The position numbers and the translations under genes are program-made. From Amphiscolops sp. MND2022 (taxonomy: Eukaryota), in the NCBI GenBank assembly GCA_964187785.1, contig OZ076409.1, positions 40,178,001 to 40,242,000 of the forward strand: 64,000 bases of DNA, given 5' to 3'. This document shows positions 1 through 36,564 of the stretch, in pieces. The notes below the pieces were generated by a model. That model saw only the letters and a list, made by a program, of their open reading frames with translations, was not told where the DNA came from and did not search any database. Position 1 is the first letter of the stretch. Each line of letters opens with the position of its first letter.

Positions 1-367
1 TTGCCTCAATTCTAATGCGCAATTCAATAATCCGAGCTATTAAAATTGTCCTCATGGACCACTACTTTCCAATTAACCATCCACGTGTCCTGTCATGTAA
101 TTATAGATTCTTCACATTATGTGTAATTATCAATGCCTCCATTCTACTGTAAAATTCACAACCAAGCCATAAAATTAAAAATTGATATTTAGGGAGTTAA
201 TTGAAAAACGATAGGTGTCATTGAATTGAGTTTGTCACTTTCCAATTCATTCAACATAAAATTCTAAGGAGATCCATTCCAAAGGACAACCATTCAACTA
301 TCATTCACCCACATCGACCAGCTGCTTATTTGCTAAACTCAAAAACAATCTCAAACTAGATCTCAGA

Positions 368-2741
368 ATGTCTGATTCTTTGGGAAGTCTCTCAATTAAC
401 AACAGTGATTTGACCCAATATTCACAAAGCAGCCCCTTTCTAACTCCTATGCAGCCTCCACAACCACTTAACCATGATGCTAATCATCATTTTCATAGCA
501 CCCCTGCACCGCTTCAACATAGTAACTTCTCCTTCCACGAGTCGTACGAGGCCATCCAATCCCGTGCCCGCCTAACTTCTCTCAAATTCTCGACCCAAAA
601 ACACCCCAATGCCACAACGGTTATACTCAAAGCAGGACATCATCCAAGAACTCCAGTGATCAAGCGTGGCTAGAACATTATGAGGCAACTGCGCTTGCTA
701 CTAGCACCGGCACTTTGAAGCGCAGTCTCAATTTCACTGCCAAGACTTTAATTGAACCAGGAACAAAATTGCCCCGACAGGAGTGGTCGGAGAAAGTAGG
801 CCCCCAAATTCAGAAGACAGTTCGGGAAATTGCAGAAGCGTACGACACTTGTGGAGCGCTGACGTTCCAACAACAGTTGACACTCTTCCACGGCATTGTC
901 ACATATCTTTACATGTATGTTGACCCGTCACTGTGATGGCGAAGAGCATTTTAGCTATGACAGTACATGCCGTCGCCCAAGTTGTGTCACAGCTTGACGA
1001 GCTAAGCCAGGACACCATGTACGAACTGAGCCTTGAACCATCTTTGGGTAATTGTTGCATTTTTTGGCAAACATGAAGCAGAACATTGAATGGAAAAAAC
1101 CTTCTTATAATTAGGAAGGGTAATAATGAAGACACACTTCATAAAAAGGATCTGTCATGTTACACTTTTCTAGAATTTTAATCCTTTTGTTTTAGGAAAC
1201 ACTATTCGATCGCAGCATAAAATAATTAAGAGAAGTAATAATGAAGAAACACTTTATGAAAAGTATCTGTCATGTTACACTTTTCTAGAATTTTAAACCT
1301 TTTGTTTTAGGAAACACTATTCGATCGCAGCATAAAATATGCTCTTGGGTGGTGAATGCGATGCGGGTTTATCACCTTGGCGTGAGACCCAATTTCCAAA
1401 GACAATCCCCACAAGTGGTCAAGAGGGCGTTCCCACTGGACGATGGCACCTAAGAGGTACAGACCGAACTTTTCTTCGTCACATCCAAAGGAAACACGAA
1501 TTTTAACCCCAGAAAAATTGCAGAAGAGTTTATGGACAAGGTACAAGAAGTTCAAAAATAGAAATTGAACGGTCACTATGTGCAATAGTTATAAACTTTC
1601 AAAATTGTCTTTTAGTATAGTCGTTTCATAGTTGACTTCTACAATGTTAATTGATTCTTGTGAAAGATTTCGTTGCTCGTTAATGATTGTATTTTGTTGT
1701 AGATGCAAAAGAATTCACGGGAGACAGTGGAAGATGTGCTGCAGGGTTATGCCAACCAAGCACTTGCCCTGCCAACATCCTGCGACGCCGTCTTCAAAAA
1801 GAAGTCACAGGCCACAACGGAGATCTGGAAAAATGTCGACATGATCTGGGCTGCCGCCAACGAGGTCACTGAACGACAACTGAGCGCATGTGTGACAAAA
1901 CGCCTCAATGCGCAGCGTAATGCCCGACAAGTGTTGCGAGCAAAAGATTTCATCACATTTTGCAGCAACAAACGAAACCAGGTCAACCCCACCAGACAGA
2001 GGCTCATTGAGTTCTACAACAAGAACTCCTGGAACACAGAAGAAGATCTCAAAAAAGTTTGTAATTCACGAACCTTAGAAATTAAACAGTTGTTACACTG
2101 CTTTAAAAGACTGCTTGAATAACTATAGGATGAAAAACATAGGTATATCATGTTATTTTTATCCCTTGTTTCAAAAGACATTCAAGATTGTCACTGATCG
2201 CCTGAATCCGGAGGCACTGCAGACTCCATCAGTTGCCCCCCGTCACGATGTCTTGTTCCTGCCAGCCCAGCACGAACAATCGGAGTGCTTCAAGAAGACA
2301 CTTTCCAAACGGTGCAAGTCGCAGCATTGGCCAGCAATCTGCGACGTGCAAGTGAAAGGTCTTGGTCGTGGGGTTATCACGACAGCGAAGATCGACAAAG
2401 GAGAGATTCTGGCTGATTACCATGGGGAAGAAATAAAAGGTATGAAGCTGAACGAGTTCCTTGAAATACCAAGCAACCAAACCGAGTATCTCTTCCAACT
2501 AGGCCAGAAACATCTCATCGACGCTTCCAGTGGAATCTGCAAGGAGCATCCGAACAACAGGTGCCTTGCCAGGTTATTCAACCACAAATCGGCCAAAAAA
2601 GCAAACGTGAAGCCAGTGCTGATAAATATAAGGCCCAACAAAGACGTCCTGGTGTTTGTGGCGAAAACTGAAATCCCTCCCTTCGAAGAGCTTCGATTCG
2701 ATTATGGCGATGAAGAAACGAGGCGACTGTTCGACGAATAA
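368..2741 (+). CDS. SET-domain lysine methyltransferase (SETD8/PR-Set7-like C-terminus); multi-exon, with frameshifts in the 5' half
   Basis: ORF 2115-2741 has GRGV..YHGE..YLF..IDAS..RLFNH..NV..ELRFDYG. Probable exons about 368-1047, 1311-1540, 1703-2057 and 2178-2741 at GT-AG sites. The upstream part aligns with the SET gene at 30.4-32.8 kb (AMTVHAVAQVVSQL vs SITTHAVLQTVPQI; LFFVTSKG vs PFFVNSWG). Confidence 0.8.
1121..1338. repeat. Tandem duplication (about 115 bp) of an intron 3' end and the start of the next exon
   Basis: TAATAATGAAG...TTTTGTTTTAGGAAACACTATTCGATCGCAGCATAAAATA occurs at about 1121-1224 and 1236-1338. Confidence 0.85.
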
Positions 2742-2929
2742 TTTTTTGTCTTGTGATTAGTTCAGATAACAAACAAACTGAATTTTAGTTTTCACGTTTT
2801 TGAATTAAATTCATTTTCAAATTAGATATGTTTCTGGAATTGTTACGTTGCTGGAATAAAAAATTTTCGAGGACTGAATGTGCTCGCGGAGTCGTTACGT
2901 TGTTTGTAAAGGAGTTGTTGGCTTAAAAA

Positions 2930-3450
2930 ACAAGTGTACTACTACCTTCGAATAACAACTAGCAATGGTGTAAAATTGATCTCTAGATTCTTCAAACAAT
3001 GCTTTAAAATTACGTTCTCAATTCTAGAGCGCTTTCTAAGCGCAAGTTGAGCTAATGGTTTTTGAAGAATCCACTAAAAAAGCTGAAACAACTGCTCAAA
3101 ACTAGTGTACTTCTACCTTTGAATAACAACTAGCAATGGTTTAAAATTTATCTCTAGATTCTTCGAACAAGGCTTTAAAATTACGTTCTCAATTCTAGAG
3201 CGCTTTCTAAACGCAAGTTGAGCTAATGGTATTTGAAAAATCCACAAAAAGAGCTTAAACAACTGCTCAAAACTAGTGTACTACTACCTTTGAATAACAA
3301 CTAGCAATGGTTTTAAATTGATCTCTAGATTCTTCAAGCAGTGCTTTAAAGTCACTTTCTCAATTCTTAGCGCTCATTTTAAACGCGAGCTGAACTAATG
3401 GTAATTGAAGAATCCACAAAATTCACTGAACTACTTGCTCAATTTTTGTG
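2930..3450. repeat. 171-bp tandem repeat, about 3 copies
   Basis: Anchor GTGTACT(A/T)CTACCTT at 2934, 3105 and 3276. Confidence 0.9.
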
Positions 3451-5569
3451 TAGTGGAGAATTGGAAAGCTGTCGATAGAGGAAAATTTTTTTGATCGAAG
3501 ATGTCAAATGTCAGTTGATTTGATTACTGGTATGATCAGATAGAATTCACTCAATTTGATGAACATGGCAACGTTTTTTTACATGTATTAATACGCGTAC
3601 AAAACTTTATATATGTGTCCAATGCAACGGCATAATGGGGATGGTGGCGCAGTTGATAAATCACGTGGGTATGTAATGAAGCTTGATGCGTTGTCAATCA
3701 AGGGTTCGATCCCCGCCAATAAACTTCCAGTTGATTCGATGCAGACTACTCTGCATTCCCTCCTCCACTGTATTGAATCAGCAAAAGACATTGTGTTCCT
3801 CTTCACAGTGATAGCCCACATGTAAGGATCACTGCGCCGCTGCATCCCTTTTTGGATCATCCAGATGAACTGAAATTAATAATTTAGATGAAATGAATCA
3901 ATCGGGTTAAAGGTCGATTCTCACATATGAACTTCTAGGCGACTCGATACAGACAACATTGTCGGTATAATTCGGCTTCACAAACAATCGGAATGCCCAA
4001 TTGACGGTTCAATCCGCTTTTGCATGCATCCTTTTTTGATGAGTCGCACAACGAAACTGCATCTTTTTTTAATGCGAATACGAGCAAGAATTTTGAATTT
4101 CGAGAAACTCAAACTCGAACTCATTTTTTGACGCATAATAAACTGCTGCATAATAAGACGCTGCATTTAACTAAATTAACTAATTTTTAATACTCGTTTT
4201 ACAATGAAAATTTCCCAAAATGTTTGAAATGCAATCCTTGATGGTAAGAAGCTGATTGTTTTCAAACAAGCTTTGACGCCCCTTGATTGTATTAGTTGAG
4301 TAAAATTGGTTGATTTCAAACTACACGGTGAATTACGCAGTAGAATTGAGGGACTAATTACTATATACGGTGTGAAGAATCTATAATTGAATGATTAAAC
4401 ATGCGGTAGTGCAAATTGAAGGTAGTGGTACACGAATTTAAACTGAACTTGTTCGTTAATTTTTGTGGATTCTTCATAACATTATGACTGCTATGAACCT
4501 ACGTTTGTAAACTCCGTACAAAAACGGTTTGAATTATTGTGTATTTGAATTATCGAATACAAAATTGATGGTAACCTATGATGGCATCAATCTTCAACTG
4601 AAAAAAAAGAATATGGTCGCTAAACAATTGCTCCCGGAGTCGTTACAAAATATTGGGAAGGATCATTTTTGTATCGAAAAAAAATGAACTAATCGAACTC
4701 CACTAAAACGTACGAAAAAGCCACAAAATTACCTGACATCACGTATTCGGAAGGATCCAAAACACAGCCTTTCTTCTCAACTTCTTCAATGTATGTCGCC
4801 CTATGGTTTTGAAAAGCTATCAATCAAAAACATTATTCTTTGATAAAAGAGGTTGTCATCAATCAATCATTACTTAGACCAAAACAGAAATAGTATACAA
4901 TTGAACAATCAAATTCGTGTTAGTATTTATTTGTGTGCAATACAACGGCATATAGGGGATGGTAGCGCAGTTGATATTTCACATGGGTATGCAGTGAAGC
5001 TAGACGCGTTGTCTACCACCGGATCGATTCTCCCATAGACACTGTTTGGTGACTCGATGCAGACCATCGTTTCACTTCACAGCGATTGGAAGGCATAATT
5101 GAAGATCCAATCAACTCAACTGCGCAACTGCATCCCTTTTTGATGTGAAAAGGATGAATAAGTTGTTGATCGTTATTTTCCTTTACAGCGATAGGAAGGC
5201 ACAATTGAAGATCCACTGCATCCAGGGGTGTTCAATAAACAATTATACCTAAGATAAAATTGAAATGATAAAAATAAAAAAAATACTTCTACACTTAAAT
5301 GAACAAACACAATTATTTTTGAACCTGTTAAAAGAAAAACTATTATTCTTGAGGTAACTAAAACTAACTAAGAACGTTCAATTCAACATATCGTCAGCCA
5401 ATTAAATTCGAACATACAGAAACAGCTTTTGTTGATATCCGTTTTTCGCTGAGAATAAAAATTTTTCTTTTAACAAAAAAATGATGAAATTGTTTATTTT
5501 TCACTATGAAATTAAAATAATTTATTTTTAGGCAACGATAATTATCGAATAAAACATTGAACACCCCTG

Positions 5570-6170
5570 ACTGCATCCCTTTTTGATGTACAAAAAGATC
5601 AGTTGTATATTTCCTTCACAGCGATAGGAAGGCACTTTTGAAGATCCACCGCATCTTTTGATGTAGAGAAAGATCAGTTGATCCTTGTTAATTTCTCTCA
5701 CAGCGATAGGAAGGCACTTTTGAAGATCCACTGCATCACTTTCTGATCTGCAAAAAGGTCAGTTCATTGTTGGTGCTTTTCACAGCGATAGGAAGGCATT
5801 TTTGAAGATCAACCGCATCTTTTGATGTGGAGAAAGATCAGTTGATCCTTGTTAATTTCTCTCACAGCGATAGGAAGGCACTTTTGATGATCCACTGCAT
5901 CTCTTTCTGATCTGCAAAAAGATCAGTTCATTGTTGGTGCTTTTCACAGCGATAGGAAGGCATTTTTGAAGATCCACCGCATCTTTTGATGTGGAGAAAG
6001 ATCAGTCGATCCTTGTTAATTTCTCTCACAGCGATAGGAAGGCACTTTCGAAGATCCACTGCATCCTTTTTTGATCTGAAAAAAGATCAGTTGATTGTTG
6101 GTACTTCTCAATAAGATGGGAAGGCACAATTGAAGGTTCAATCCGCCACAGCATCCATTTTTGATGAAAA
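5570..6170. repeat. 82-bp tandem repeat with alternating A/B units (164-bp higher-order unit)
   Basis: CAGCGATAGGAAGGCA at 5619, 5701, 5783, 5865, 5947 and 6029; degenerate copies near 3806, 5079 and 5186. Confidence 0.9.
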
Positions 6171-8379
6171 CAGTGATGTCCATTTTCAGTCAAAATTAAA
6201 AAATATAAACTATCAATTCAATATGAATTAGCCGAATAATCTGTTTTCGGCACTGATGCATTAATGTACGAAACTCTAAGTTATAAAACATCATTTATTT
6301 GAAACAAATAGCAACTCTCCCTCTCCCACACAAACTTTTTAAAGAATAGGGAAAATAGTATGAACCAAATTTGTATTCCAATTATAAACTGTATCTCTAG
6401 AAATACCTTTAAAATTGAAGGAATCTGGTCTGTAATCAAGTTTTTCTGTTATTACAAGTAGTTGCAAAAACATCATCTTGAAAAGTGTGTGTGTGGGGGG
6501 ATAGTTCCTGAATGGACATCACTGGATGAGAAGAAAGAGAATAAAGATAAACCTGTATAATTGGTATACTGAATTGATTTCAAATTTTACGTCGAATTGC
6601 GCAGTAGAATCGAGGGACAAATTACTTTACATGGTGTGAAGAATCTATAATTGGATAATAAAACATGCGAGAGTGTAAATCGAAAGTATTGGTCCACGAA
6701 TTCAAAATAAATTTGTTCGTTCCATTTTGTGGATTCTTCGCAAAAATAGGACTGCTATGAAAATACTTTTTAAAACATCATGCAAAACTGGTTTGCAATT
6801 TTGATTCAATTGGAAAAAAAAACAAATAAAAAATTACTTTGCCATTTTGTAACTAATGAAATCATACAATTATCTTTGTAATCGCGTTGTCTAAGCGCGT
6901 TAAAAAGAATTTTCAAGTGGTAACTGTATCTTGAATTATCTCGGACCATATGGTACTATTCGATCTCTTAGTTGAACAATTTGTTCAACTAGGCAGGTCT
7001 TTTGTCAACACTATTGTTGATCATTTTTCTTTTAACCGCTACCACATTCCCCCGCCGGCAATTGACGGTTGGGAATTTCTATTAATAGGCTATTTCTAAT
7101 AATTAACATGGGAAATGTTATTTGACACTAATTTTGTTTTTATGTTATTTGCACTTATGGTATTTGGTACGTAATCATCCGTTCCGTTGCCCTTTTGGAG
7201 TCGTTACCTTAAACTAAACATTTATATTTAGTCCTGTTATTATCATGCTCATGGAGTCGTTACGGGGAAGTCCCAAATAACATAAGAGCAAATAGCATAA
7301 AATTAGTTCAAATAACATAAAACTGAAATGGGTTTCACTAAACACGGAATTTGAAACTAATTTCATTTTCGTGTTCTTCGACACCAATTTTGCCTCTGCT
7401 ATTTGCACTTGTTATTCGGTACGTATTTGTCGTTAAATGTTTCTAAACATTTGTGCTATATCCTTTTTTCATCGCGCTCATGGAGTCGTTACATCTGACT
7501 AAACGTTTTTTTTCTATGTCATATATTCATTGCGAACAAATTGTACCAAAAATAAAACACTTGACTTAACTTACTCGAAGATTGAGTTTGTTTGATTGCT
7601 CAAATTGAAGGTTTGCAGTTATCTTGTTGTCTTCAGGAAATTCTTGAAGTCTTCAGGAGATTCAGAAAACGACTGATTGTCAGCAGCAATGGTTGTTAAT
7701 TAACGTTACTAGATAAAGCGAGGGATTTTGAAGTTTGTTTACATGACGCACAAATTTCTGCGCGTCATGGTCACGTGACAAAAAGTTCATCTAATTCCAA
7801 GTACATGTAACGTTTTTGGATCAAGCTAGATATTTTGTTTACATAAGGCACTAAATTATGCGAGTCATGGTCACGTGACAAAAAGTTCCTTAAAGATTTG
7901 TAGAGATTTTAGAGATTTGTAAAGAACGAGGGAAAAAAGAGTGAAGAAACGAGTGAAATCAAGAAGAACGTCCAATTTCATAAATCCTTTTTGAACCATG
8001 CCAAGACTGAACGAAATTTTCACCGAACGGAACCAAAAGTATCAGAGATGATGTGACGTCATAAAGAACTATATTGAATTTATTGTATAACGAATGACAT
8101 CCATACAATCTATTTGAACGCTCCTGGAGTCGTTACAACAATAACTGTTTCATTAAATTGATATAAAGTTTTTCGAGTTTAACAATTGGAGGGAGGACGG
8201 TATTTGATACATTTTCTTTGCTCTTGGAGTCGTTACAAATTTATCAATACAAACACAGGTTTTTTGATTATTTGAATTATCAATACAAAAAACGTTAGGA
8301 AACGAAGTTTGTTCATTAGTAGTCTGCGCAGTTGAAGTCTTAAGTTGAACAAATTTGGGCGAGGGATGTTGGTATAGAA

Positions 8380-8870
8380 AAAAAGTGTACTACTACCTTT
8401 TGAATGCTTTAAAGTTACGTGTTCAATTCGAGAGCGCTTTCTAAACGCAAGCTGAGCTAAGGGTATTTGAAGAATCCACAAAAAGAGCTTAAGCAACTGC
8501 TCAAAACTAGTGTACTACTACCTTTGAATAACAACTAGCAATGGTTTAAAATTGATTTCTAGATTCTTCAAACATTGCTTTAAAGTTATGTTCTCAGTTC
8601 TAGAGCGCTTTCTAAACGCAAGCTGAGCTAAGGGTATTTGAAGAATCCACAAAAAGAGCTTAAGCAGCTGCTCAAAACTAGTGTACTACTACCTTTGAAT
8701 AACAACTAGCAATGGTTTAAAATTGATTTCTAGATTCTTCAAACAATGCTTTAAAGTTACGTTCTCAATTCTAGAGCGCTTTCTGAACGCGAGCTGAGCT
8801 CATGCTATTCGAATAATCCACAAATTTCACTCAACTAACTACTTGCTCAATTTTTGTGTGCTGGAGTTTT
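8380..8870. repeat. Second array of the 171-bp repeat (first unit internally shortened)
   Basis: Anchor GTGTACTACTACCTTT at 8385, 8510 and 8681; same sequence and orientation as 2930-3450. Confidence 0.9.
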
Positions 8871-8995
8871 GGAACTGGTGAAACTGAATAGTTATTTGAA
8901 AACTTTTCAAATTTGAACATTTTAAATTATTACAGACGGACGTTACATGCCTCATACGGAGAAAAATGTTAAAAACTGGTCCTTTTCTTCTTCTT

Positions 8996-11900
8996 TTACT
9001 TGAAAGGAGTCACATATGAGCCGTCTGGTTGCTCTTCTGCTCTTGCTCTTTTGCGCGAAAGCTTCAAGGAAGTAATCAAAGATCTGTAATCACCGTCTAA
9101 TGCTCCGGCGTTTCTTTGTCTCTCAAATAATGGGCGTTGATCGTTGACACAAGCCCGCTTGATTGTATCATTACATGACATCACGTATTCGGAAGGATCC
9201 AAAACACAGCCTTTTTTTCAACATCTTCAATGTATGTCACCTTTATAAATTTGAAATCAGTGGCGGCAAATTCCCTGCATATTCTGGCTGTTCCTTGAGC
9301 TGCTGCTTTTTTCATTGTTTTCGATGCAGCCGGTTTTCGTTGAGTTGTCGACGTACATGTGTCGCTGTCCGATTCAGAAGCTGCGCATTGCTCACTCCGC
9401 GATGCTCTGAGTAATTCAGTGTCGTTTTTTAACACAACAAAACAATTTGGGGTTGAAGAATGACGCTTAGATAGACCAAGAGCTTTGTCCTTACTCAACA
9501 CCTCCCCCCCAAACGGGTAATTGTATCCTCTAGTGCTTTTGCAGTAGTTCCAGAGAAGTGTCCAACCACGTGAAACCGAAGTCCACTCAACAACCTGCAT
9601 GAATCACGAGTGGCACCTATTTCTACAATGACAGGCTTGACAACATTTTTGCAGATTTCAAAATAAGTTGTAGTTGGCTCGTATTGTTTTTGAAGTTGGG
9701 TAAACAAATCGCTCACTGCTATTTTTTTGTGTTTCGAAACTATGTCGAGATAATGGCAGTAAGAAAAAAAACCTTCATAGAATAAAGGATCAGGGTTATA
9801 CAGTTTCCCTCCGCCTCGCATCGTTTTTGTTTGAAAATCCTTGTGTGCGTGATGGTTTGATTTTTCCATTGCCTCACACATGTGGTGCCAGGGACTACGA
9901 ACAAATCCTGCCTGCATTATTTCAGGTACTAGCATCATTTTCAATTTATAGGGTGTCAGACCTTCTTTTCCGGAAAAAAGAAGCAGCGATGACTGGTAGT
10001 AGGTCTCTGACCAGAACTTGAATTGCTCCATGTCTAGTCCGTGTTTGGAGGACCGCAAAATGATGGCACATTTGTTTAGACTTCCTTGTAAAAGATTTGC
10101 GCAATCGTTTGTTGTGAACTGGTCAAATTTCTCTAGATAAGGGTGCATTTTTCTGAGAACTGCAAAAGCGTTGGTGACAGCACGTGTAATTTCTTTGTCT
10201 GTGTCGTTGTTTATGTTCTCAAAAAGGATTTCTTTTCCCCATACGTTTTCAAAATGGTTGGGAATATCTTGCCCAAGTTCATCTTTGTCAGCGATAGCAA
10301 CTAGCGCTGAAGTTCCTGACAGCGACACAGGTCCAACAACCCCTTTTTTCAAATCAGATCCTTTCACTTGCAGGTCAAACTGGAATCTGGGTTTTTTCAT
10401 CGCCCTTCGAGTGCAGTTATCTTCCAACTTTTGTAAGGCCACTTTGTATAGCGGTTTCTCGTTTACGATTTTTTGTGTTGCTTTGCGAAGGTCACTCTCT
10501 ACACACCTTGTGATCATATGCGTAACGTCTGGCATGACACATCTTATATCCTTAAGGTACACTAGTGAATTTTGTGGAACTTCTTTTCTGAAAGGCGCTT
10601 CTAGATCGTGGCGCAATCCAGTATTTTTATCCACATCTGTAGGCAAAAATTTTTCAGATCCCACATATAAAGCCAAATCAGACGGGTACAGGTTCGATGC
10701 ATCGCTGTCTATAGCCAGTATGAGACGATACAGAAAAGGGTTGTCGCCGGAACATGTAACCACTGCCCCTTGTGTGCTTAACTCTTTTGTTTGCATGTAC
10801 AGCCACCCCGTCTCCTGTTTTCCAGCTATATCTGGCCCCAAATTTTGCTCCAGTACGAATCTGCTATCTTTTCCTCGGAACGCTAAACAAAACGACTTTA
10901 TAAAATACTTATTAGAAGAATTCGGTTGCGAATATCTTACAAAATTGTTTAGATTGTGTACATTGAATGGATTTCAATTCATACGATGAATTGGGTAGTA
11001 GAATTGAGGAACTAATAAGAACACATGATGTGAAAAATCTATGATTGGATGAGAAAACATGTGAAAATATAATTTGAAGGTAGTGGTCATGAATGTATAC
11101 TAATGTCCTTATTTAATGGAATCTTCAAAACAGAAAACTACTAGGGTAATTGATAATAAAAAGCAAACTGCTAACTTACCACTGAAGCAAAACGTTATGC
11201 TTGATGACTGTGCTGTGATTTTCTCCGAGAAGTCCTGTAAAATTCGGAAACACATCCTTGTGTGATCATTACCACCAATTTCACAGCCGTCACCCCACAA
11301 ATCAATGTTCAGCCCCAATATCGTTTCTCTTCCGTAAAGAATCCAGGCTGCAAAGTTGACACATGATACCAAATCACAACGGAATCCTGAGAATGTGGCT
11401 TCAGGCTTACATACGGAAATGAAGTTTTCCATGATACGACTCTGGTATCTCTGGACTGCACGGTAGGATGGTACGATGTTTTGGAGTTTTCCTGTTTCAT
11501 TTATTTTCAAATTCGAAGAGATAGTGAACAGCAAGTCTTCTGCTTTGCCTGGTTTGAGGGAAATAGCAATACTGGAAGTTATTGCTTCTCGCGATTGCAA
11601 GTTTGGGAAAAGTTTTTTAATAACAGACTTCAGATACTCTGGTTGTTTGCTTTTGGAATACTGAAGGATGACGTCTATGAGAGAGTCGAAACTGACTTTG
11701 TTTCTTCTTGCGTGTAGCAGAACATACTTCCAATAAATAATTGGCCTTCTTTGAAGTCCAACTGCTCCTTTCCTTCGCGGAACTATGCTAGTAGTAGCAA
11801 GTTTGTTTCCTGGCTCAATTGACTCATCTGTTTCAGTTTGTGTGCCAGTTGTTCTGTGTGCAACTTGTTTTAGTAGAGCTGATTTTACCTCTTGGTTACA

Positions 11901-12224
11901 TGTCGGAAACAAATCTACGCCCATCAGTTCAATGATGAGTTCCCTTCGAGCATTTGTCCCTGGGAGATTTTTCCCACCACTCAGAACGATCAGTTTCATC
12001 GTATGTGCCTCAATGAAAACCGAGTGTTTCTTCTGAGTGTCTTTTTTCCATTTAATGATGAGATCTTCGGATTTTAACGAGGTTCCACAAATGACATGAT
12101 TTGTCAATTTTGAAGCTCCTTGATATTTGTTAGTCTCATTAACTAGGGAAATTTTTTCTATCAGGTTATAATCAATATATTGAATAATGTTTATTACTAA
12201 TGAATTCTCGTTCCAAAGCTCCAT
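8996..12224 (-). CDS. RAG1/Transib-like DDE transposase with C-terminal BRCT-like domain (copy A)
   Basis: Exon 12224-11180, intron 11179-10883 (G|GTAAGT...TTTAG|CG), exon 10882-8996 with two -1 slips in homopolymers (about 9505 and 9215). Motifs in RAG1 order: PSYRAV, IDLWGDG (first D), QSSSITFCFSAFRGKD, SGDNPFL (second D), MPDVTH, SLSGTSA, LTPYKLK..VPEI, CEAMEKSN (E). Then LLSGLRFHVVGHF..TITRLGGEV..FIKVTYIEDVEKKGCVLDPSEY (BRCT-like). Confidence 0.75.
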
Positions 12225-12693
12225 TCTGTTCGATTTTCAAAGTTGCTCAGATTCAATTCAATATGATGAGTGGATCAGTTGTTGTTGATTGATGTGTTGC
12301 TTTTTATGGCATTCTGTGATTACACATTATGTTGAAGGAGATTATAAGAATGTTGAATTTGAAGGAGAAAAAGAGTTCGACAGCTTGTCCTAATCCTAAA
12401 AGTGGGGACGAACGTTCAGCTTATCAGACAGACTCAGTTATTAACTAGATTTCATTTTGATTGAATATTGATATTGATGCGTGTAAAATTTGAGTCCCAC
12501 GCCTTCATTCTAAGTTTGAGCTTACCGTCGAGTATACTTCGAGTGAGACTCAATTTTACTCTCAGTGTAAGACTCAAATTTTACACGCAGTTTTTAAAAC
12601 TTCTCAAGGCGTATCATTTGACTTTGAATTTCGCTAGTTTGCACTATCAACAATTCAGCTTCCCACATTGCAATTCAGTGTTCAATTTTCACA
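12225..12693. promoter_or_regulatory. Probable bidirectional promoter between transposase A and partner A
   Basis: Head-to-head ATGs at 12224 (-) and 12694 (+). The same arrangement recurs at 41238-41719. Inferred from position only. Confidence 0.45.
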
Positions 12694-14211
12694 ATGCTGT
12701 CGAAACAGTTCGAAATAAATGAAATTGTCGATGCTATCGACGAATGTTTTATATGGTGGCTAGCAGAGATTATCAAATTTGATGGGGAATGGGAAGTAGT
12801 TGTTCGCTGGATAGAATTTGGAAATAGAAAATCGACAATAACCATCCCCAGCACTATCAGAAAAACATCAGAGAAATGGAGTATCCGGAAAACAAAAGTC
12901 ACCCCTCAATCATTGCCCTGTAAAAGAAGCCGCGATAACAAAATTCAGCTGGATTATAGAGCCAAATTTCAACCCCGTGGTGACACAATAAGGTTTCGCC
13001 AAGGAGATACTGTGCAAAAAGGCTTCGTCTTCATCAATGACACTGTACTCCAAGAAATGGAGATACTTGAGGAAGACGAATTCAAAAAATGGGAAAAATC
13101 TACCGATGAGTACGATAAACTGACGACTGCTTTCAGAATACTGCGAATAAGATACAACGACCTGCGGAGATTGGCAGCGCCAGTGAACACTCCCAGTGGC
13201 ATGGAGGAGAAGGACGATTGCTCAGATGAAAGTGACGACGAAAGTATTCAGATGAGTCAGCCAAAAAAGCAGACAAAGGTCGCGGGGCACAACTTGAAGA
13301 AGAAAACACCGGTCAATATGATCTGCATGATACCTGTAAGTCTAACGTATTGAAACTAAATTTCTATGATCGTCGTTTGAAACAGATTATATTACACGCT
13401 CATGGAGTCGTTACATTTTTACAATAGAACTGATGTTTATTTAGAACTATACATTCCTGGGGTCACTACAATGTTAACTTGGAAATTTTAGGTTCGTTTG
13501 TTTTTTTGAAGAAAGTAATTATTGGGTTTTGTTTCAGAAATCTACCGACGAGGGTAAGCTCATCTTGTTTCCATGTGTGAATGGAATATTGCATGAAGGT
13601 GGCAGAGTCCTGGACCACTGTGGCCAACCAGCTATAATTCGCAGCCTCAAGCTGATATGGAGGAAAGAATAACCCCTTGTTCTCGTTACAATGGCTTCGG
13701 AGCAATGCGAGGACGTTTTAATCACAATGCCCTCGACGAACGTTGTGTTCCAGGAGGAGAATTTCATGAGCAACATAACTCATGAAAGTTTGATTGGAAG
13801 CGTCGAACACCCTATTAGTAGGGTGTGCTCGCTGTTTGCAGCCGTGAAAAACGCCGTTGGAATCGCCTTGTTGTCGCGGACTGGGTATGCAGGGATCTTA
13901 TGTGTTGCGAATGATCTTTCCACAACAGCCCTTGAAATAGAAAAGCCCTTGAAATATCAATTCCCGCAGACAAAAAAGGATGCCATGAGTCATTGGACAC
14001 TGTGTTAGGCAAACTGTGGGACAGGAAGGCTGGCGGTTATAGCCAGACCGACAAGTTCATCAAGTCGATGAGATTCATGATAAAAAAATCGTTTGCTGTA
14101 TCGTTGATAAAATGCAGCGTCGTAGTAATCGGCGGAGTTTACCCAGTCACGAAGTACAGGGAGATCATTCGACAAAATATGGCTGCAGATATGGAAGAAA
14201 ACCTCCTGTAG
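12694..14211 (+). CDS. Transposase-partner protein A, N-terminal Tudor/Agenet-like domain, rest unknown
   Basis: FEINEIVDAIDECFIWWLAEIIKFDGEWEVVVRW fits a Tudor/Agenet barrel pattern. Exon 12694-13335, intron to 13537, exon 13538-14211 with frameshifts. Aligns with 41720-43295 (FPCVNGI/VPCENGI; WDTVLGKLWD/WDSTLGRQWD; FIKSMRF/IIKSLKF). Confidence 0.7.
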
Positions 14212-16015
14212 ATCACGATGTATTGCAGTCAATTCTTTTTAAAACTTTTTAGTTTTCAAAACTTTTAAAGGTTGTTTTTTAATTGGATTCAAATCCTTTT
14301 GTGATGCATGGAATCTTTATGAAGTAAATTATTCTTATCGTTTGAAAGTTGAATAAACTATCCTTGAAATAAAATATTCTCCTCGTTTGAAAGTTAAATG
14401 TTTGAAAAAGTTATTAAAAGCGATATACGCTCCGGGAGTCGTTACATTGTTAGTTTTGAAATGTTGTTTAAAGTATAAATGTTTCAACTACAAACACTGA
14501 AAATGACTTTTCAATTTGAACCTACGTCTCATTCTAACGAAATCTTTTTCTTTTCAACTCTTGCGTTCTTCAACTCTTGAAAAAAATCAACCGGGTTGAA
14601 ACTGAACTACAATGAGTCACAATATACAAAATTTAACAAAAGAATCAAGTAGCAAAAATCAGGCACAATGAGAAAATAAAAGATCTCCGAAGGTCAACGG
14701 TTTCATCAAAATGGCATTGGCTGTGGCTGTCATTTCGGGTGATTCACCTAACATGCCATAACAAATCAGCCATCCCAAAAGTTATCAAGTTGACAGGGTC
14801 TGAAACAAAAATTATACAAATCAAAAATCTCTATTTTCCAGATCAAAACGTATCTTATCGAACAAAAATTAATTCTCGAACTTAGAAAGGTCCTGAATGG
14901 AATTCTTATGCTTTCATTCAAGTAGTTTGGTCATAAATAAAAACAGCCAAAAGGAAGTTTCGAAAAGAAACATTACTAATGAACGTAACTCTACATTGAC
15001 AGTGAAATTGTAATTTGAACGTTGAAAGATGATTAACAGCTGCGAGGTCATACCTATTTGCTTTTGAAGAATCCAAGAAGAATTTTGAAGAATCCAGATA
15101 ATTTTGAAGAATATACGAAGTTACAAAGAATCGCCACAGCAGTTCTTAGGCGTGCTACCATATCTTATAATGAATGTGAAGATTCCACAAAATTAATTGC
15201 CTTGTGAAGAGTTCAAGAAAATTTGTGAAGAATCCAGGAAAGCTTGTGAAGAATCCAGAAAACTTTGAAGAATTGACGAAAATCGAAGAATCTTCACATC
15301 TATTGTTAAACATGTGAATCATATATTGTTATTAATGTGAAGAATCCACAAAACGTTTTCCTCATTTCTTGAAAATTTCATTTTTGCACTACTAATATTA
15401 TTGTCTGAATTCTTCCGTCCAACTGGCGGCACTTTGAAGTTCACTTTTTCCTCATTTCTAGAAAACACATTTTGGTAGTCGCAAAAGCCAATTTTCCTGA
15501 ATTCTTGAAAAACACAAAGTTCCCTGTTTGGCGTCGTAATGTTACTTTACCATGCTGTCAGCAGGTGCCTATAGAAGTTTGCATATCTCGAGTGGTGCAA
15601 AAACGTACCACAATGCTATTCCGGGTTAAATATCCCGGAAAGCGATCATGTCTACTTGCCTTACCTTAAACAATGCTCTAAAAACCATTGCATCAAACTA
15701 CTTATATGCAGTACACTTGTCATTCTACCACCGCCAGTTTTGTTGGACGTAGAACAGGAACATCAAAACGAAATCTCTTGACAATACTCAAGGCAGGAAA
15801 AAGCCGAGGCGAAACTTTTTATCTAGCCTTCGAAGCCTTTCGGAAAACACCACACAAGATTTAGATATTCGGCTGCAATATAATATTTCAATCGACCGCT
15901 GAACGCGATAATATCGAACTCACTGAACTCTTGGTGCTTGAATGATTGTCCCTAAGGCTTAGGGTACAGAACGTACCTTTACCACATATTGGGGTCGGTA
16001 TGCAGAATCATCGTA

Positions 16016-25994: not shown

Positions 25995-28724
25995 GAGGCT
26001 GTTATCAATTTGTCAAATTACTTAAGCAGATGCTTAACACACAAAGGTGTAAACTTTGTTATTGAAGAGAAAAAGTCCAAAGAAAAACCATCCGAAGCCA
26101 ATTGGAAGAAAACTCGTTTACACTTGGCGTCCTTTCAGGTTGGTCTTCATCATTACCAATCGCTAGACCAGTAGCAGAAAGCAGAAAGCTTCGCTTCTCA
26201 CGTGCATTCATGATATTCTGGACGTTATCGGCAGTCTTATGTTTTGAACGTCATTTCCTTGGACTTTTTTTACTCTTACTTATTCTCATAGAGTGAAGGT
26301 TGATACTGAAAGAGTGTGAAAAAGGTTGAACATTTTGGACGTAAATAACTAATGTGTACTTTGAATATAATGGCAATAATAGAAACTGATGTCATCACAG
26401 TACATTTCAACTTGTTTAGCTGAAGAATGTCATGAGGAAGATTAATTTGTAATGTCAGGAAGTGAGACTTATGAGCTTCACAAACAGAACCTCAAAATCT
26501 TAGTCAAGAAAACAGTGCGTACGATAATGCACTTTGAGGACTAATAAGACTAGCAAAAGTCCATGGTACCTGCTACCAAGAAAAAATTAGTCATCCAAAA
26601 GCTGTAATCAAGACAGTTAATCAATCAGATCCAATTATACGCATGATAAATTCCCTATATGTACTCTTTTTGTAACGACCGGCTAGCGACGAATGAGGCT
26701 ACAAAACCCTTTAAAACCAGTTGCGGATAGGCCGGATTGACTTTTTCAATAGGTATAATCAAAATACAAGGTGTACACTGTTTGAAACCGTCTATTTCTG
26801 GGTCTAGACCCCGGAAGCATGCAGAAAACGCTGTAAAAACGCTAATACAAAGACCAAAGGGCTAGAAAAAGATAATAAAAATAATCTAGGACCCTCTGAA
26901 AAACTTCTCCTAGATCCAGACCTAACATGGCCGGAAAGCAGGAGTTGCTCCTAGTTAGACGTAAAAATAAAAAATATCACTCTGTGGTCGCCATAAAAAC
27001 TATTCCAGATGTAACGACCGGCTAGCGACGCACATCTACGAAGAGGGACAACATTACAGTGGGGTAACCGGCAACGAAAATGCAGATTTTACTCGTTGTG
27101 CGGCTCGGAAAGCAATGGACATGCATGAATGTATGGGCCAAAAATGCCTATTCGTTTCGCAGCCAAAACTGCTGCCTATTGATTTCCGAGGCAGCACAAG
27201 CTACGTATTGAGTTTCTTTGCAGGAGCGATGGCTTTAATTGCCCATGCATACTCGTTGATGAGTGTAAATCGGGCAAGTAATTCCATCGCTTTCGCAAAG
27301 AAACTCAATATTTAGATAGATCTGCCACTCGCTTCGGCCAATTCAATACATTGCTTTGACATGGAAGTGTCTCAATATTTATATACACATGCAGATTTTC
27401 AGTGTTCAGTTTTTGTTTTATCAAATTAATTCAGGAATATTTTTTGACTAAGAAATATCAGCTCAACTACTATTTTCCCAGTAATTTAGGCGGGACAATT
27501 GAAATTGGCAATGACGAAAATCTTCGTTCCGAAGCCGATATCTGCAGGAATATAACCTTAATAATATTTTCGCTTCGGCCAATCACTGCAAGATTATTAT
27601 CGTGATAAATTTTAGTTTACTCTATTTTAATACTGTTTAATACTTAACTATTCTTTTTTTGTATATAATGGTAATTATGATCGGGCAATTATGATAATTA
27701 CAAATATTTTGATGTATTTTGATGTGTAGGTATATTATGATGTGTTAGTATGTAATTTTGATGTTTGTTATTTTTTTGGAATTTATTAAATCAGTATTCG
27801 GTGAATCGTTTTTGTTTTAAGGCAAAAGAACAGTATATTTGATATATAATACGAGTTTAAGTTTTTTCAATCATAACGAAAAAATTGTTTGATAGTTGTA
27901 CACTTACTACAGAAACAACTTTATTCAACTATTCACCTTGATTGATATATATGTTTTTTTGATGTTTTTTGATGTTTATTAATTTAATTGGTATCCTGTG
28001 AATCGTCATTGATTTATTTATTGACAATTAATCTAATTATCAAAAATCAGGATTCTTTGTTTTGGGGCAAAAGAACAGTATAGTTGATAAATAATATGAA
28101 TTTGAGTTTTTCCAATCATAACAAAACAATTGATTTTTTGATATTTATTAATTGAGTTGGTATCCTGTGAATCGTCATTGATTTATTTATTGACAATTAA
28201 TCTAATGATTTTTCTGATATTCACCATTTTGTCAAAGTGTGAACGTTCTTATCAGTTGTTAAAGTCAACGCTCAAAGAAGTGGAATGTTACTAAAAGTTC
28301 AAAGTACTTTCACCTCCATTTCAGTGATTTAAGTGCACAAGTGAATCAGTAAGATTGTTGTAATACGGGAGCAAAAGTTTATTTGTTTTTCTGTTGATGA
28401 AACTACATGTAATCTTGATGTACGAAACCGAATACTCGCATTTGATTGGACAAAATTCTTTCGTCGCATATTCCGACGAGGTCATTTTGATACTGTGCGT
28501 GTAAAAGTTAGTCATTCGTTTTCATTTTTCTGCCATGTTAAAAACATTACTTTTTCGGATCCGTAAGCTGGACATTGAACTAGACGACTTACTGGACCAT
28601 TTGAAACAGGTTAGAGTTAATCAGTTGATTTATTAACTTTCAGGGTTGGCTTTTTAATACTTTGGTTTTAATAATTGTTTTCAATAATTTTCTTGATAAA
28701 CGTTCAACGTTTATTTCAACGTTC

Positions 28725-28873
28725 AACTCATTTCAATTTTGTGTTTTGAAACTAAGTTTTTTGTTGTTTGTTCCTTATGTTATTTAGGAAATCACCAAGT
28801 TGGTGATTTCCTAAATAACATAAGGAACAAACAACAAAAAACTTAGTTTCAAAACACAAACTTGAAATGAGTT
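28725..28873. repeat. Near-perfect palindrome, 74-bp arms, 1-nt loop
   Basis: Centre ATCACCAA-G-TTGGTGAT at 28799; one mismatch (28737/28861). Confidence 0.95.
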
Positions 28874-29035
28874 TCACTAAACATACAAATGAAATTGCTT
28901 ACGAAAGTTTTAGTGGTCAAAAGCATTCACAATTGATTCAATCTTATTTGAAACTAATTTCATTTTTGTGTTATTTCAGACAATTTTTCAACAAACTATG
29001 AGAATATCCGAATAATGCTTATATAGATGGTAGTA

Positions 29036-29465
29036 GGCGGATTCCCAAAGCGTCGAATATTCAAAGCGTCGAAATTAAACAAAAGTATTCATCGCATCGA
29101 AAAATAATTATTGAACGCTTCTGATTGGTTGAAAATTGAAATAGGAAAGAATTAATATTGTTGAATTTGTGTGCTACACAGCATCGAACTAATTACGATA
29201 ACGTAGTCAGCTATGTCCACATACTCCTAGTTCCCTAAATGCAGGAGCGAAGCGAAGCGGAGCGACGTGCCATGTGGTCATGCCTCAATGTTGCTACTTG
29301 GCGAAGGGAGCGAAGCGACCGAGCCATACAACAAATATGCTAACCTCTTCAAATAATAATCTGAAAAAAATCGCTGATATGGAATATTTCGACGCGATCA
29401 ATAACTAACTTTAATTTCGACGCTCTGAATACTTTTGTTTAATTTCGACTCAATGAATAGCCTCC
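29036..29465. mobile_element. MITE with imperfect TIRs and a 9-bp TSD-like flank
   Basis: GCGTCGAAATTAAACAAAAGTATTCA near the left end is inverted near the right end. Flanks are ATGGTAGTA and ATGGTGGTA. Confidence 0.65.
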
Positions 29466-30100
29466 ATGGTGGTACACTGTTATTCTAATCTCAGAAGTTT
29501 TGCACATTTGGTTGCAGAAATTCGGTTACGGATATCAAAACGTGCCCATGGATTCCCGAGTTTTGTAAGGCCTTGTCGGTTACCCCACTTTGATGCAATT
29601 TTGTTGTTCTTTTCAGCCCAAATTTAGGCCAAGCCTTCATAGAGAAGCCAGTTATACAAGTGCCAGTAACGAAGCAGTTCTCCAAGAACACTGCGGCTTT
29701 TCGACTGATAGAGATGAGCCAACCGTCTGTCAGAGTTAGTTTATTTTACCATGAACTTTTTGAAATCTTACATGTGTCTGTGTTTTGACTAATGCCCGCA
29801 GTTCATCAACCACTATTTGAATACATGAATAATAGAAAAACTAAATCCGAATGTTTCACATTTGACTACGTTGCTGCAGGAGACGAGGAAGTTGAGACCG
29901 ATGATGAACAAAGCACTATCCAGGAACACATTTTGACTAATAGGGATCAAATCAGCCTCCTCAACGATCCGACCGTCTGCCCCAGTTAGTTCTTTTATAT
30001 GATTACTTGAGAGTGTTAATCGATATCCGCTTTTTGGAATATCAATTGGCATTTTTTGAATTGAAAATTGACAAAGAAAACAAAACCCGAAGATAATATA

Positions 30101-30319
30101 CAGTAGTGATATTATTAAAAGCATCAAAAGGCAAATCTCCAAACGAATATCTCTAAAACGGCAGCGGTTTATAGAAACTGATAAAAACGAACGTTTCCTA
30201 GATTTTTCTCTAGTTTACAAATATGTTTGTTTGAAGATTTTTTCGAGAATACATGTTTCAGGATGACTTTGAAGTTTTTCTTTCCACCTGCTTTGTTGCT
30301 TTTAAAAATATCACCACTG
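30101..30319. mobile_element. Tc1/mariner-type MITE (TA TSD)
   Basis: TA|CAGTAGTGATATTATTAAAAGCA ... TGCTTTTAAAAATATCACCACTG|TA; same TIR as 37844-38158. Confidence 0.85.
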
Positions 30320-30394
30320 TATTTGACTAGATGACAATAACTAATATTCCAACCAGAAATTATTTAAAAACAAAGTTCGAGTTCATCAATGGTT

Positions 30395-32760
30395 TTACTC
30401 GGCATTACCGCCGAAAATTCTATTGGCTTCGGGATCCATGTATTCAAACATCAGCTGCTCTAGGGGTTCAATTTTCCGCTTTGCAATAAGTAGCACGTAA
30501 CGCGGATTATTTTTCAAGTATATACATTTCAATTCGACCAGTTTCATGTTGCAAGCTGGGTTGGTCTTTCCACCATCAAAGGTACTTGAGTAATTGCACA
30601 ATCGAGCAAGGCACCTTCTGCCATCGTTGTGGATGGGGCATATTTCTGAGGTTGCATCAATAATTCTTCCCGGCCTTGTTTTAACCTCGATGCAGTATTA
30701 TGGCTTGCGGTTCTCTGGGTCCAGACTGCAGTAGTAGTCGACATTGTTCGTGTTTCCTTCTACATGTCCGTGGTAGTCAAATATAACGTCATCCTTGTTA
30801 AATGGTTTGCTTGCGATTATTCCTCGACCCATTGTAGGATAGACAACATCGCAGACGCCTGGCCAGAATTGGTTTTCGCATCTATCTTTCAAGTCATCTT
30901 GGAAGTAAGGGGTATTGCAAAGTCTCCATTCTAGATTTGGATTGAATGCTTTCTTGCGCGAACTTTGTCGAGATCTTGATACCCCAGACATTCTAGAAGA
31001 AGCATCCACGACTCTCTTTACATCTGTGAAGTGGGGACAGTTGACCAAGTTTGCAAAATTGAATTTTCGCTCTCTTTCTTTCGCAGCGTCAGCTAGTGAT
31101 GTAGGGTAGTGGCTCTTGTATTCGGCCGCCCTAATATCAGCTCTTTGATGCCTAAGTGCTTGAATTCTTTTTTCGACTACTTTCATGACCGTTCTTTCAT
31201 CGTAATGTCCGCTGGGCCTCAAATGTTTTTTGACTTCCATCATCAGGTTCAGACCAAGATTCAGACCAAAATTCTTCTTCTGCTGAACATTTTGAAAGTG
31301 TCATCAGTTTGACAGTTCTTTCCAATCTGTCCATTTCACGTTCGGCTGGGTTTTTTGTCAAGTCGGAAAACTAGAACACGCAGATACTTAATGAAATAAG
31401 AGAAAACTGCAAAAGGAAGATGTTTCTAGTATTTCAACTTGTGATTATGGCTTATGATTACTATCGAATAATACAAATCAAACTGAATCAAGTAATTCTT
31501 ATCAAACAGTATTTGATTAGTTTCCTGTTCAATCCGATTTCTTACGTTCCGCACTTTGAATTGTGTTTTTCCCCAACTGTTGACGAAGAATGGCTCCGTC
31601 AAGACGTAATATGGTGGTATCCCTTGACTGGGTGACTGCATGAACCTTTTTTTCTGGTCGATGCCTTCAGGTTTTTATAAAGTACGGTCGTACAGCTTCA
31701 AAATATATTAACATTGCTTCTCCAACAATGTGAGGAATTCTGAAGCTGTCCAAGTACCCAGCTTCATCTTCAATTTGCAAGACTAACAAGTCACTTGAGT
31801 TAGAACTTCTATTGTTCTGAATTTGAGGGACCGTTTGCAAAACGGCATGAGTTGTGATGCTCAAAATGTTGCGATCTCTACACTTTGGAATAGAAAATTC
31901 CAGCGAATAAGCAATGAGGTCCCCAAACAAATTTTGTTTTGCCAATGCTGGTTAGAGATTTTGCGAATTTGAATTGCTTCATTATGTCATAAAGGTCTGA
32001 CAAGAGTCGCGCTTCAACTGTTGTGCATAATGTTAGGTGCACTGGGGTAATTTCTCGCAAATTTTTCTCATTATTTTTGGGAACACATCGTTTACTTTTT
32101 GGGCCATGGTTTTCCTCACCATAATGATTAAGTTTCCGCTTGTTCGCTATCTCCTGTTGGCATCTTTCCATCGTTGCCAAGGTGTCGCTGCAAGAACGGC
32201 TTAGCTGACTTGCCATGATGTCACTCGGAGTTTGGCTCAGTTGATTCGTCGTACTGTCACTCGGAGTGTGGCTCAGTTGATTCGTCGTACTGTCACTCGG
32301 AGTGTGGCTCAGTTGATTCATCGTACTGTCACTCGGAGTGTGGCTCAGTTGATTCGTCGTACTGTCACTCGGAGTGTGGCTCAGTTGATTCGTCGTACTG
32401 TCACTCGGAGTGTGGCTCAGTTGATTCGTCGTACTGTCACTCGGAGTGTGGCTCCGTTGATTCGTCGTACTGTCACTCGGTGTGTGGCTCAGTTGATTTG
32501 TCGTACTGTCATTACGGAGTGTGGCTCAGTTGATTTGCAGTGTTGATTAACAGAGGAGTCATTTGATTTGCAGCAAGTTGAGCTTGTACCATTATCGAGA
32601 CGTCTGAAGGGCTATCTTCATAATTCACATCCTCTATATTAGATATTTGTGAAAATATCCTTTGTTCAACTTGGGTGAAACTTGGCCAGCTTATAGACGA
32701 CACACTGGGTGATCCATACAACTGTTGTGTCGAACTAGATTGATTCAAGGGAGTACTCAT
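30395..32760 (-). CDS. SET-domain protein B (homolog of 368-2741), frameshifted, with one probable intron at about 31.37-31.55 kb
   Basis: RCENQFWPGVCDVVYPTMGRGIIASKPFNKDDVIFDYHG..RCLARLCNYS..CNMKLV..LIAKRKIEPLEQLMFEY assembled from ORFs 30698-31243 and 30395-30601. Ser/Gln-rich N-terminus. The canonical NH is NY here. Confidence 0.75.
32220..32535. repeat. 36-bp coding tandem repeat (NQLSHTPSDSTT, about 8.5 copies)
   Basis: Unit GTCACTCGGAGTGTGGCTCAGTTGATTCGTCGTACT repeated head to tail with no spacers. Confidence 0.95.
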
Positions 32761-33456
32761 GTACTATGCAATGATGCTTTCATTCGGTTTAAATGGAGTC
32801 GAAAAACTTTCAAACGTTTCGTTTGGAGCAACATAATTTGTCACAGCCGGGCTAGTCCCCAAGACAGTGTAAGAGAGGGCTTTCTCGTGTTGAGGAGGGT
32901 TCATCGTTATGTAATGAGATTGTTTTCTAGCTACTGTTTGGATTGAATGTGAGTGCTCAATCCTTTCCTTGATCGGTCAAAATTCGAACTAATTCAAATA
33001 CGCTTCGTCAATCAACTGTGGTATTTTATAATTAAAGAAAAATGGTGATCTTCGAATTAAATAGTACATATATGATAATTATTCATTTCTGATAATGAAA
33101 TATTTAATTATTGAAAGAAGGAGTACATACCGTTGGTAATAGTTTTGCGGATGTGCTATTTAGATTTGGATTAAGATGAGCTCATTTAAGGAGGCTTTTC
33201 GAATCAACTGTGGTGATAATTACTTGATGAAGTGCGAACCTTCAATTATCGTTTCAAAATAGGGGATAAAAACCGAAGTATGAAATAACTTAAGCTAATT
33301 GGCATAAAATGAATTCAACTTTCGCCCATCCGTTTCCGAGTTTGAATACAAGAAAAAGCCATGTATTTCTGAGTTTCAAATTGCCCATGCGTTTCCGAGT
33401 CTTAAATGGCGTTATCATCTTGATGATCTGTTGGGATATCTGAAAGAGAATTTAAA

Positions 33457-36400: not shown

Positions 36401-36564
36401 TTGGGACCTGCAGGCTACTCAAATGGGAGTTTCTGGCCAAGGCACTAGATGTCCTCAGCTTCCATTCCAAAAATGACAGCCGATCCAAGAGCAATCGACG
36501 AAAGTTTGTGCAAACTATCAACCGGTACATGTTGTCAATTTCCCAAACAGGAACATATCATTAA
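33457..36564 (+). CDS. JmjC-domain histone demethylase-like protein (KDM2/KDM7-PHF8 type), multi-exon
   Basis: YILLSQKGSITPWHVDYTNTSVFYHLLYGRKEFFMIP..MPAGMIHMVRT..NF retains the HxD...H iron ligands and the T/K 2-oxoglutarate residues. Exons about 33457-34216, 34374-34463, 34621-34707, 34865-34951, 35109-35419, 35567-36092 and 36260-36564, with some frameshifts. Cys/His-rich N-terminus. Confidence 0.85.
34129..35110 (+). repeat. About 245-bp exon-plus-intron tandem repeat, 4 copies
   Basis: Repeated TTTCAG|ATTCCGACAGC...CCCCAAG|GTACAA; exons of 87-90 nt encode DSDSNQEAFQEENREEDESEEEVDRHVPQ. Confidence 0.92.

Follow-up and report, generated by a model that had tools for sequence, protein, structure and literature searches.

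Transib transposons consist of a single gene. Together with EnSpm/CACTA, Mirage, Chapaev, Plavaka, ESTA and Lanisha they make up the CMCT clade, for which the accessible part of Kojima (2025; PMC12730594) gives CA..TG ends, target duplications of 2-5 bp, and C(2)C and H(3-4)H motifs in all lineages. RAGL elements and Transib both generate 5-bp duplications and both have zinc ligands, four of them in RAGL, while Transib has CAC ends (accessible part of Martin et al. 2020; PMC7204232). Chromatin-related genes have also been described in transposons: SET genes are carried by HarbingerS and by oomycete MuDR (PMC12730594, same part), and the targets of VANC are element-specific tandem repeats (PMC5735166, in part). 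Here we describe element A, which lies at the left of a 64,000-nucleotide stretch of Amphiscolops sp. MND2022 DNA (the window; G000:C1:40178001-40242000, part of a 1.07-Gb eukaryote assembly), together with its neighbor, element B, and the family to which both belong. The best overall explanation, which we hold at slightly better than even odds, is a RAG1-like transposon with a four-gene core, whose cargo edits histones on the element's own DNA.

Ends, gene content and descent of the family

Element A is, with near certainty, a DNA transposon. Elements of its family read CATTAC...GTAATG from end to end, and the terminal 15-mer has 278 matches in the genome, as against one for the reversed control. 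Terminal inverted repeats (TIRs) of 22-26 bp are present at both ends in groups A1, A2, A3, B, C, E and G; the ends of groups D and F were not found. We drew 18 facing end pairs from the first 100 listed places of the 15-mer, leaving out two further long pairs; most are derivatives of 0.4-9 kb that resemble miniature inverted-repeat transposable elements (MITEs). All 18 are flanked by a 2-bp target duplication, the sequence of which varies (1.29 of 18 would be expected from mismatched pairings), and none by one of 3, 4 or 5 bp; because two of the 18 have flanks in common, 17 of the pairs are independent. The flanking 2 bp also match in 10 of the 14 full-length copies with both ends; the four that do not match, one of which spans a gap, count against this reading. 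In two identical A2 copies with non-matching target duplications (L071-L076; G000:C12:44297028 and C13:2002485), the flank on the left of one copy runs on into that on the right of the other, which suggests an assembly misjoin or recombination between copies. A transposase search gives at least 98 matches in identity bands near 97, 84, 65, 48 and 43%, the B transposase has more than 30 near-full matches at 93-97%, and copies are dispersed over 13 large contigs. From the ends and duplications we infer cut-and-paste transposition with a 2-bp staggered cut.

The genome contains at least seven deeply diverged groups, for each of which one to three copies were mapped. The family very probably has a core of four genes, since transposase, partner, SET and JmjC are all present in groups A, B, C, D, E and F/G, although in one of three F/G copies only partner and transposase were seen in the stretch examined. 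A reading made earlier from the window's letters (the sequence-only reading) had taken JmjC for variable cargo; we reject this, because a JmjC gene is found upstream of the window in element A and in every group sampled. It is the order that varies. With the transposase (Tp) drawn rightwards, there are five layouts in all: partner<, Tp>, <SET, <JmjC in A (A1-A3); partner<, Tp>, <JmjC, SET> in B and F/G; Tp>, JmjC>, <partner, SET> in C; JmjC>, <partner, SET>, Tp> in D; and <SET, partner>, Tp>, <JmjC in E. Transposase and partner are thus head-to-head in A and B, as had been noticed, but they do not form a conserved core of the family, for this arrangement is confined to A, B and F/G, and the partner forms a head-to-head pair with SET in the remaining groups, C, D and E. 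For the A clade we counted neighbors at 44 of the 98 listed matches (those of roughly 300 residues upward): a divergent partner stands beside 44/44, a convergent SET beside 40/44 and a JmjC gene beside 39/44, with no other gene orientation among the 44, so that layout A is a stable trait of this clade. In group D, a small RING-like open reading frame (ORF) follows the transposase (L090:5284-5574) and is identical in two copies; it is a possible case of true optional cargo. The full transposase core of this group is intronless (for example G000:C13:32944446-32947970).

All four genes are under purifying selection. Between A1 and A2, the ratio of nonsynonymous to synonymous divergence (dN/dS) is 0.12 for the transposase (921 codons), 0.13 for SET (182), 0.09 for the JmjC region (267) and 0.25 for the partner (319), with dS of 0.9-1.7 and bootstrap intervals of dN/dS all below 0.35. 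Between near-identical copies the ratio is 0.3-1.1, with wide intervals. Deeper pairs are saturated at synonymous sites, including A versus B (proportion of synonymous differences 0.83-0.89), so that the A-versus-B ratio proposed in the sequence-only reading is not computable, and it is the A1/A2 comparison that reveals the selection. In the trees of the seven groups, A1-A3 stay together for transposase, SET, JmjC and partner. As these trees are unrooted and anchored on A, we claim co-descent of the genes for the A clade only; the placement of B and D differs between the SET and transposase trees (weak support, 56-78), which counts against the overall explanation.

The two elements in the window are homologous in transposase and partner. 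Their transposases align with a tblastx E of 4e-74 and 39% identity over 609 codons, and their partner proteins are also homologous. The blocks previously paired by eye were located as described: SGDNPFL and EKSNHHAHKDFQTKTMRGGG both in the A ORF 9498-10973(-), and the B counterparts SGDQPFL in 39792-40154(-) and EKSNHHVHRDFQQKTMRGGG in 38728-39831(-). The proposal of an old, diversified transposon family holds, given the numerous transposase matches, the TIRs and target duplications, the purifying selection and the saturated A/B synonymous sites, which also lead us, as that reading did, to reject a recent A/B duplication. Neither of the contrary cases that it had named, single-copy host genes and a lack of purifying selection, is what is found, as the copies are dispersed and selection acts on every gene.

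Predicted proteins and relation to known transposons

The transposase, whose type the sequence-only reading did not name, is probably a DDE enzyme of RAG1 fold. An AlphaFold model of its exon 2 (378 residues; predicted template modeling score, pTM, 0.76), compared with 48,161 structures, matches BbRAG1L best (Z 11.0; root-mean-square deviation 3.8; 217 aligned residues), followed by four RAG1 chains (Z 10.0-10.2) and HzTransib (Z 8.4; deviation 4.1; 176 aligned), and everything outside RAGL/RAG1/Transib scores Z 7.4 or less. The top nine Foldseek matches are RAG1 as well. Several points weigh on the other side: these Foldseek matches are not significant (best E 0.23); the model omits the exon that carries the first Asp; it is mostly helical, and for helical proteins caution is advised up to a Z of about 13, above the 8-11 obtained here; and at the level of sequence neither Pfam nor PDB profiles match the transposase to RAG1 or to any family of transposases. 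PDB profile searches of the transposase return BRCT-containing chains only, and no Pfam transposase family matches in 24/24 family members, of which eight have C-terminal BRCT matches below the Pfam cut-off. A search of the genome with the Pfam RAG1 model gave no match and is uninformative, as its control matched nowhere either.

The ends of the aligned ranges, which are not residue-level, put Asp46 of the SGD motif near RAG1 708 and Glu339 of EAMEKSNH near 962. E962 of RAG1 occurs in the title of a Foldseek match, and we take D600 and D708 to be the numbering of its two catalytic aspartates. The motifs WGD, SGD, DxxH and ExxExxNH are kept in relatives down to 22% identity. A zinc-ligand CxxC after the second Asp occurs in 2 of 54 homologues, at differing positions, and in none in the alignments, and H(3-4)H before the Glu is found in 0 of 100 homologues parsed by motif search. 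The stretch reads TPYKLKL, and we equate it, by position and the RAG1 motif, with the ZnH2 site of RAG1. The catalytic core is accordingly modeled as RAG1-like and predicted to be without the zinc site.

Transposase relatives elsewhere form 429 clusters at E up to 0.001. Five metagenome contigs (2-6 kb) hold relatives with 40-59% identity to the query P0040, some with an intron at the same place, and no cargo was seen on them; viral contigs gave a single weak match of 70 residues, taken as chance. Seven distant relatives (P0063, P0067, P0069, P0078, P0080, P0084 and P0086) end in a basic helical tail, which by eye presumably resembles an HMG box, with no Pfam match.

The SET protein is closest to SETD8 (top 14 PDB rows, E 6.5e-9), keeps the RxxNH and FDY motifs, and has Phe at the switch position in 5/6 groups compared; it would be a SETD8-like enzyme, with H4K20 methylation suggested by this likeness. 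For JmjC, PHF8, KDM7 and KDM2A are near-tied as best matches, and the iron ligands are kept (HxD as WHIDF or WHVD(F/Y), plus a later His), so that by likeness it appears to be a demethylase of PHF8/KDM2 type. SET and JmjC are separate genes, because in group C, where SET is a frame of 680 codons, the partner lies between them. In group C an ELM2 domain scores 23.2 bits, above its cut-off of 21.7.

The partner model (group C, pTM 0.51) consists of two Tudor-like barrels, a third, BAH-like barrel and a C-terminal domain of about 150 residues. It matches many Tudor rows (Foldseek E down to 3e-4, Z up to 7.6), and Tudor-like barrels are therefore predicted, with the reservation that all structure matches have Z < 8 and the Atlas lead for the partner is weak (0.85). 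No kelch or PHD match to Pfam was found in the partner. An Atlas lead for its C-terminal half (nematode FTH/FBA clusters, 0.87) is below the tool's threshold and was rejected.

Compared with RAG1 and RAGL (ProtoRAG), the family is alike in its best predicted fold, the D, D, H, E order, the TIRs and a second gene that may read histones. It differs in that the ZnC2/ZnH2 ligands are missing, the duplication is 2 bp rather than 5 bp, and the 5'-CAC start of Transib and RAGL is replaced by CAT in all ends found. In place of the convergent RAG2L gene of RAGL, with its kelch propeller and PHD, the family has a partner with predicted Tudor-like barrels and no fixed orientation (head-to-head or elsewhere), and it adds SET and JmjC genes and a BRCT-like transposase tail. 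The fold match to HzTransib and a similar Glu motif are the likenesses to Transib, which is set apart by its 5-bp duplications, CAC ends and zinc ligands, as far as the accessible description goes, and by having one gene. On the strength of the 2-bp duplication, the CAT ends and the missing zinc ligands we reject membership in either Transib or RAGL. With the CMCT clade as given in the accessible part of PMC12730594, the family has in common CA..TG ends, a duplication within 2-5 bp, a RAG1-related core, subterminal repeats and MITE-like derivatives, but it is without C(2)C and H(3-4)H and matches no Pfam transposase family; ESTA, in the same source, duplicates TA, whereas the dinucleotide here is variable. 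Because the ends are CMCT/RAG1-like but the defining zinc motifs are missing, we file the family under no named CMCT member; it is set apart from Kojima's families by motifs and description, as far as that source gives them, and not by sequence.

HarbingerS and oomycete MuDR with SET, TET-bearing fungal transposons and VANDAL with VANC likewise encode chromatin modifiers, one each according to the accessible parts of their descriptions, whereas a writer, an eraser and a candidate reader occur together here on a RAG1-fold transposon. We found no description of this gene combination in the literature searched; Repbase Reports and subscription journals were outside the search, and a prior description there is possible.

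Elements A and B in the window

The right end of A is at 15541, not at 15615 as first proposed: three other copies stop matching there, and the flanks beyond differ in each. The right TIR (15516..15541, minus strand) reads CATTACGACGCCAAA... from the end, is preceded by a subterminal region with repeated GAAGAATCCA motifs (15062..15515), and the TT directly beyond it, at 15542-15543, is probably the target duplication. The supposed left boundary, 368, is instead the likely start codon of SET, and A extends at least 14 kb upstream of the window, up to a run of N. Of the left end and further cargo anticipated there, the cargo was found: 12 kb before the window begins there is a JmjC gene (domain in two exons, G000:C1:40165961-40166576, the second above the Pfam cut-off). 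C2H2 zinc fingers and an ELM2-like motif accompany it, and all of these are on the same strand as SET. The left end is probably at C1:40115956, since the flank there ends in TT, matching the start of the right flank, and a 2-kb left arm, 97% identical to the arm of other copies, precedes a gap. About 46 kb separate this gap from the next; the 16 kb examined are unrelated to A. A JmjC gene of another group lies between the two gaps, about 27-28 kb upstream of the window (L031).

By self-blastn of the window and upstream stretches, A contains a local tandem duplication of about 9.7 kb (94-99% identity), whose second unit begins about 1.76 kb upstream of the window and fills 1..7858; it gives A a second SET copy at G000:C1:40170459. 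Given this identity, the units could alternatively be two haplotypes assembled in tandem. SET itself (368..2741, plus strand, multi-exon as judged from the sequence) has its SETD8/PR-Set7-like domain in the last exon (~2190-2738). Its frame 2079-2738 (Pfam SET E 1.8e-12) faces the minus-strand transposase, with no JmjC match between them by tblastn, and in B SET is co-oriented with the transposase, all as previously noticed. The non-coding spacer (2927..8874), much longer than its counterpart in groups A2 and A3, contains tandem arrays of 171-bp and 82/164-bp repeats, with GAATCCAC and GGAGTCGTT motifs scattered through it.

The transposase gene (9110..12224, minus strand) appears to have an exon 1 at ~12224-11180 with the first Asp (DLWGDG), an intron at ~11179-10883 and then exon 2, with the second Asp in SGD, DVTH, the Glu in EAMEKSNH and a BRCT-like C-terminus. 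Splice sites were placed from the sequence and homologues, and the introns would be of spliceosomal type. The partner gene (12694..14211, plus strand; putative exons 12694-13335 and 13538-14211) is head-to-head with it. Compared with other copies, SET has 1-bp deletions near 549 and 924 and the partner a 13-bp deletion near 13945, and a frame break in the transposase near 9510 is shared with two C4 copies. The window copy is likely non-autonomous and, being frameshifted, would depend on intact copies to supply functions; C4:59907226-59937001 holds an A1 copy free of gaps.

Element B (27052..43637) has its left TIR at 27052 (CATTACAGTGGGG...), followed by SET(-), JmjC(+), transposase(-) and partner(+); its last ~170 bp were not found within the window. 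A pair of 650-bp direct repeats (94%; 44016-44665 and 50772-51423), similar to long terminal repeats (LTRs), cuts B near its right end, and a 360-bp direct repeat (98.6%; 26692-27051 and 50398-50757) abuts the left TIR and recurs before the second LTR-like repeat. Inside B are a near-perfect 149-bp palindrome (28725-28873), with related sequence in A at 7271-7391, and an ORF (33427-34413) that is possibly true optional cargo. The ends of B, C and E read CATTACAGTG, containing ACAGTG, which we take to be part of the RAG signal heptamer; the ends of A and G are without it, and it is possibly due to chance. A and B are neighbors, and an A1 element lies within about 1.5 kb of a group C transposase (L066-L070, G000:C4:59907226-59953000), so the family may be clustered in the genome.

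Elsewhere in the window, a 484-bp MITE-like inverted repeat (16010-16493) is immediately right of A. A minus-strand gene for an MFS transporter (23086-26012) is split by a Tc1/mariner element at 23943-25289, which has inverted ends of 30 bp and HTH_Tnp_Tc3_2. Minus-strand ORFs in several frames fill 59581-64000, and these we presume to be LTR retrotransposon pol-like (protease, reverse transcriptase, RNase H).

Possible roles of the cargo

Every group has its own 9-mers, chosen after the fact, spread over many 700-bp bins. GGAGTCGTT occurs 13 times in A1 and 11 in A2, although dS is near 1, and neither six other groups nor 119 kb of background contain it. In A1, A2, C and G, GAATCCAC lies near both ends in opposite orientation; it occurs in internal arrays as well. 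The ratio of observed to expected CpG is about 0.9 in elements and background alike, which suggests little CpG methylation and hence, presumably, silencing through histones.

A sequence-specific anti-silencing role of the cargo seems to us to fall slightly short of an even chance. The zinc-finger/JmjC/ELM2 protein would recognize the motifs particular to its group in the non-coding part of the element and, bound there, the JmjC protein would remove repressive histone methylation; the SETD8-like enzyme would add a methyl mark, by likeness on H4K20, and the partner would read methyl-lysine. Three points weigh against this. A PHF8-like eraser might work against a SETD8-like writer of H4K20; methylated H4K20 is often a repressive state, at odds with simple anti-silencing; and the motifs could be transposase-binding sites, as the inverted GAATCCAC near both ends would fit. 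More tentative is the wider proposal of an undescribed RAG1-fold lineage at superfamily level, with the zinc site lost, a 2-bp stagger and its own complete writer-eraser-reader set, which zinc fingers would aim at its own DNA through co-evolving motifs.

The cargo might instead serve DNA repair or target choice, mimicking the H4K20me/53BP1 axis of break repair to steer how the donor site is repaired or where the element inserts. We think this unlikely, though SET is closest to SETD8 and JmjC to PHF8, 53BP1 is linked to H4K20me2, its tandem Tudor ranks high in the partner's Foldseek matches (E 8e-4), and the sub-threshold BRCT matches in 8/24 family members would fit. The Tudor barrels match many readers equally (Z 6-7.6), and the zinc fingers, ELM2 and internal dispersed motifs indicate transcriptional control.

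Still less likely is a self-limiting or host-manipulating cargo that dampens the element, with ELM2 acting through deacetylases and SET placing a mark that represses, or that adjusts its activity to the germ line. ELM2 proteins recruit histone deacetylases, and both the ELM2 score in group C and the modest copy numbers per group (at least tens) are in keeping with this. A conserved, active-looking demethylase of putative PHF8/KDM2 type fits de-repression better, and the transposon-borne modifiers already known are read as anti-silencing in the accessible part of PMC12730594.

We give marginally less credence to SET and JmjC acting on the element's own proteins, with methylation of the transposase as a switch that the Tudor partner would read. 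SETD8 has known non-histone substrates, and the four genes stay together through five rearrangements, but zinc fingers and DNA motifs point to chromatin. Host genes spread by segmental duplication, or functionless passengers, might be suspected from the local 9.7-kb duplication and the dN/dS among near-identical A1 copies (0.3-0.85, wide intervals), but this reading is contradicted by the sharply defined ends that copies have in common, by their TIRs, target duplications and dispersal, and by the strength of purifying selection between groups; we consider it extremely improbable and reject it.

If the wider proposal of a separate RAG1-fold lineage is true, the family would be an animal-type counterpart of VANC that acts on histones, and an independent parallel to RAG1 with its histone-reading partner. 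The RAG1/Transib family would be widened by a branch that is without a zinc site thought to be structurally needed and has a different cut geometry. The family also offers a tractable case for how a transposon might counter histone-based silencing: its four genes have been retained across deep divergence, several copies are young, nearly identical and have long open frames, and each group has different candidate target motifs in its DNA.

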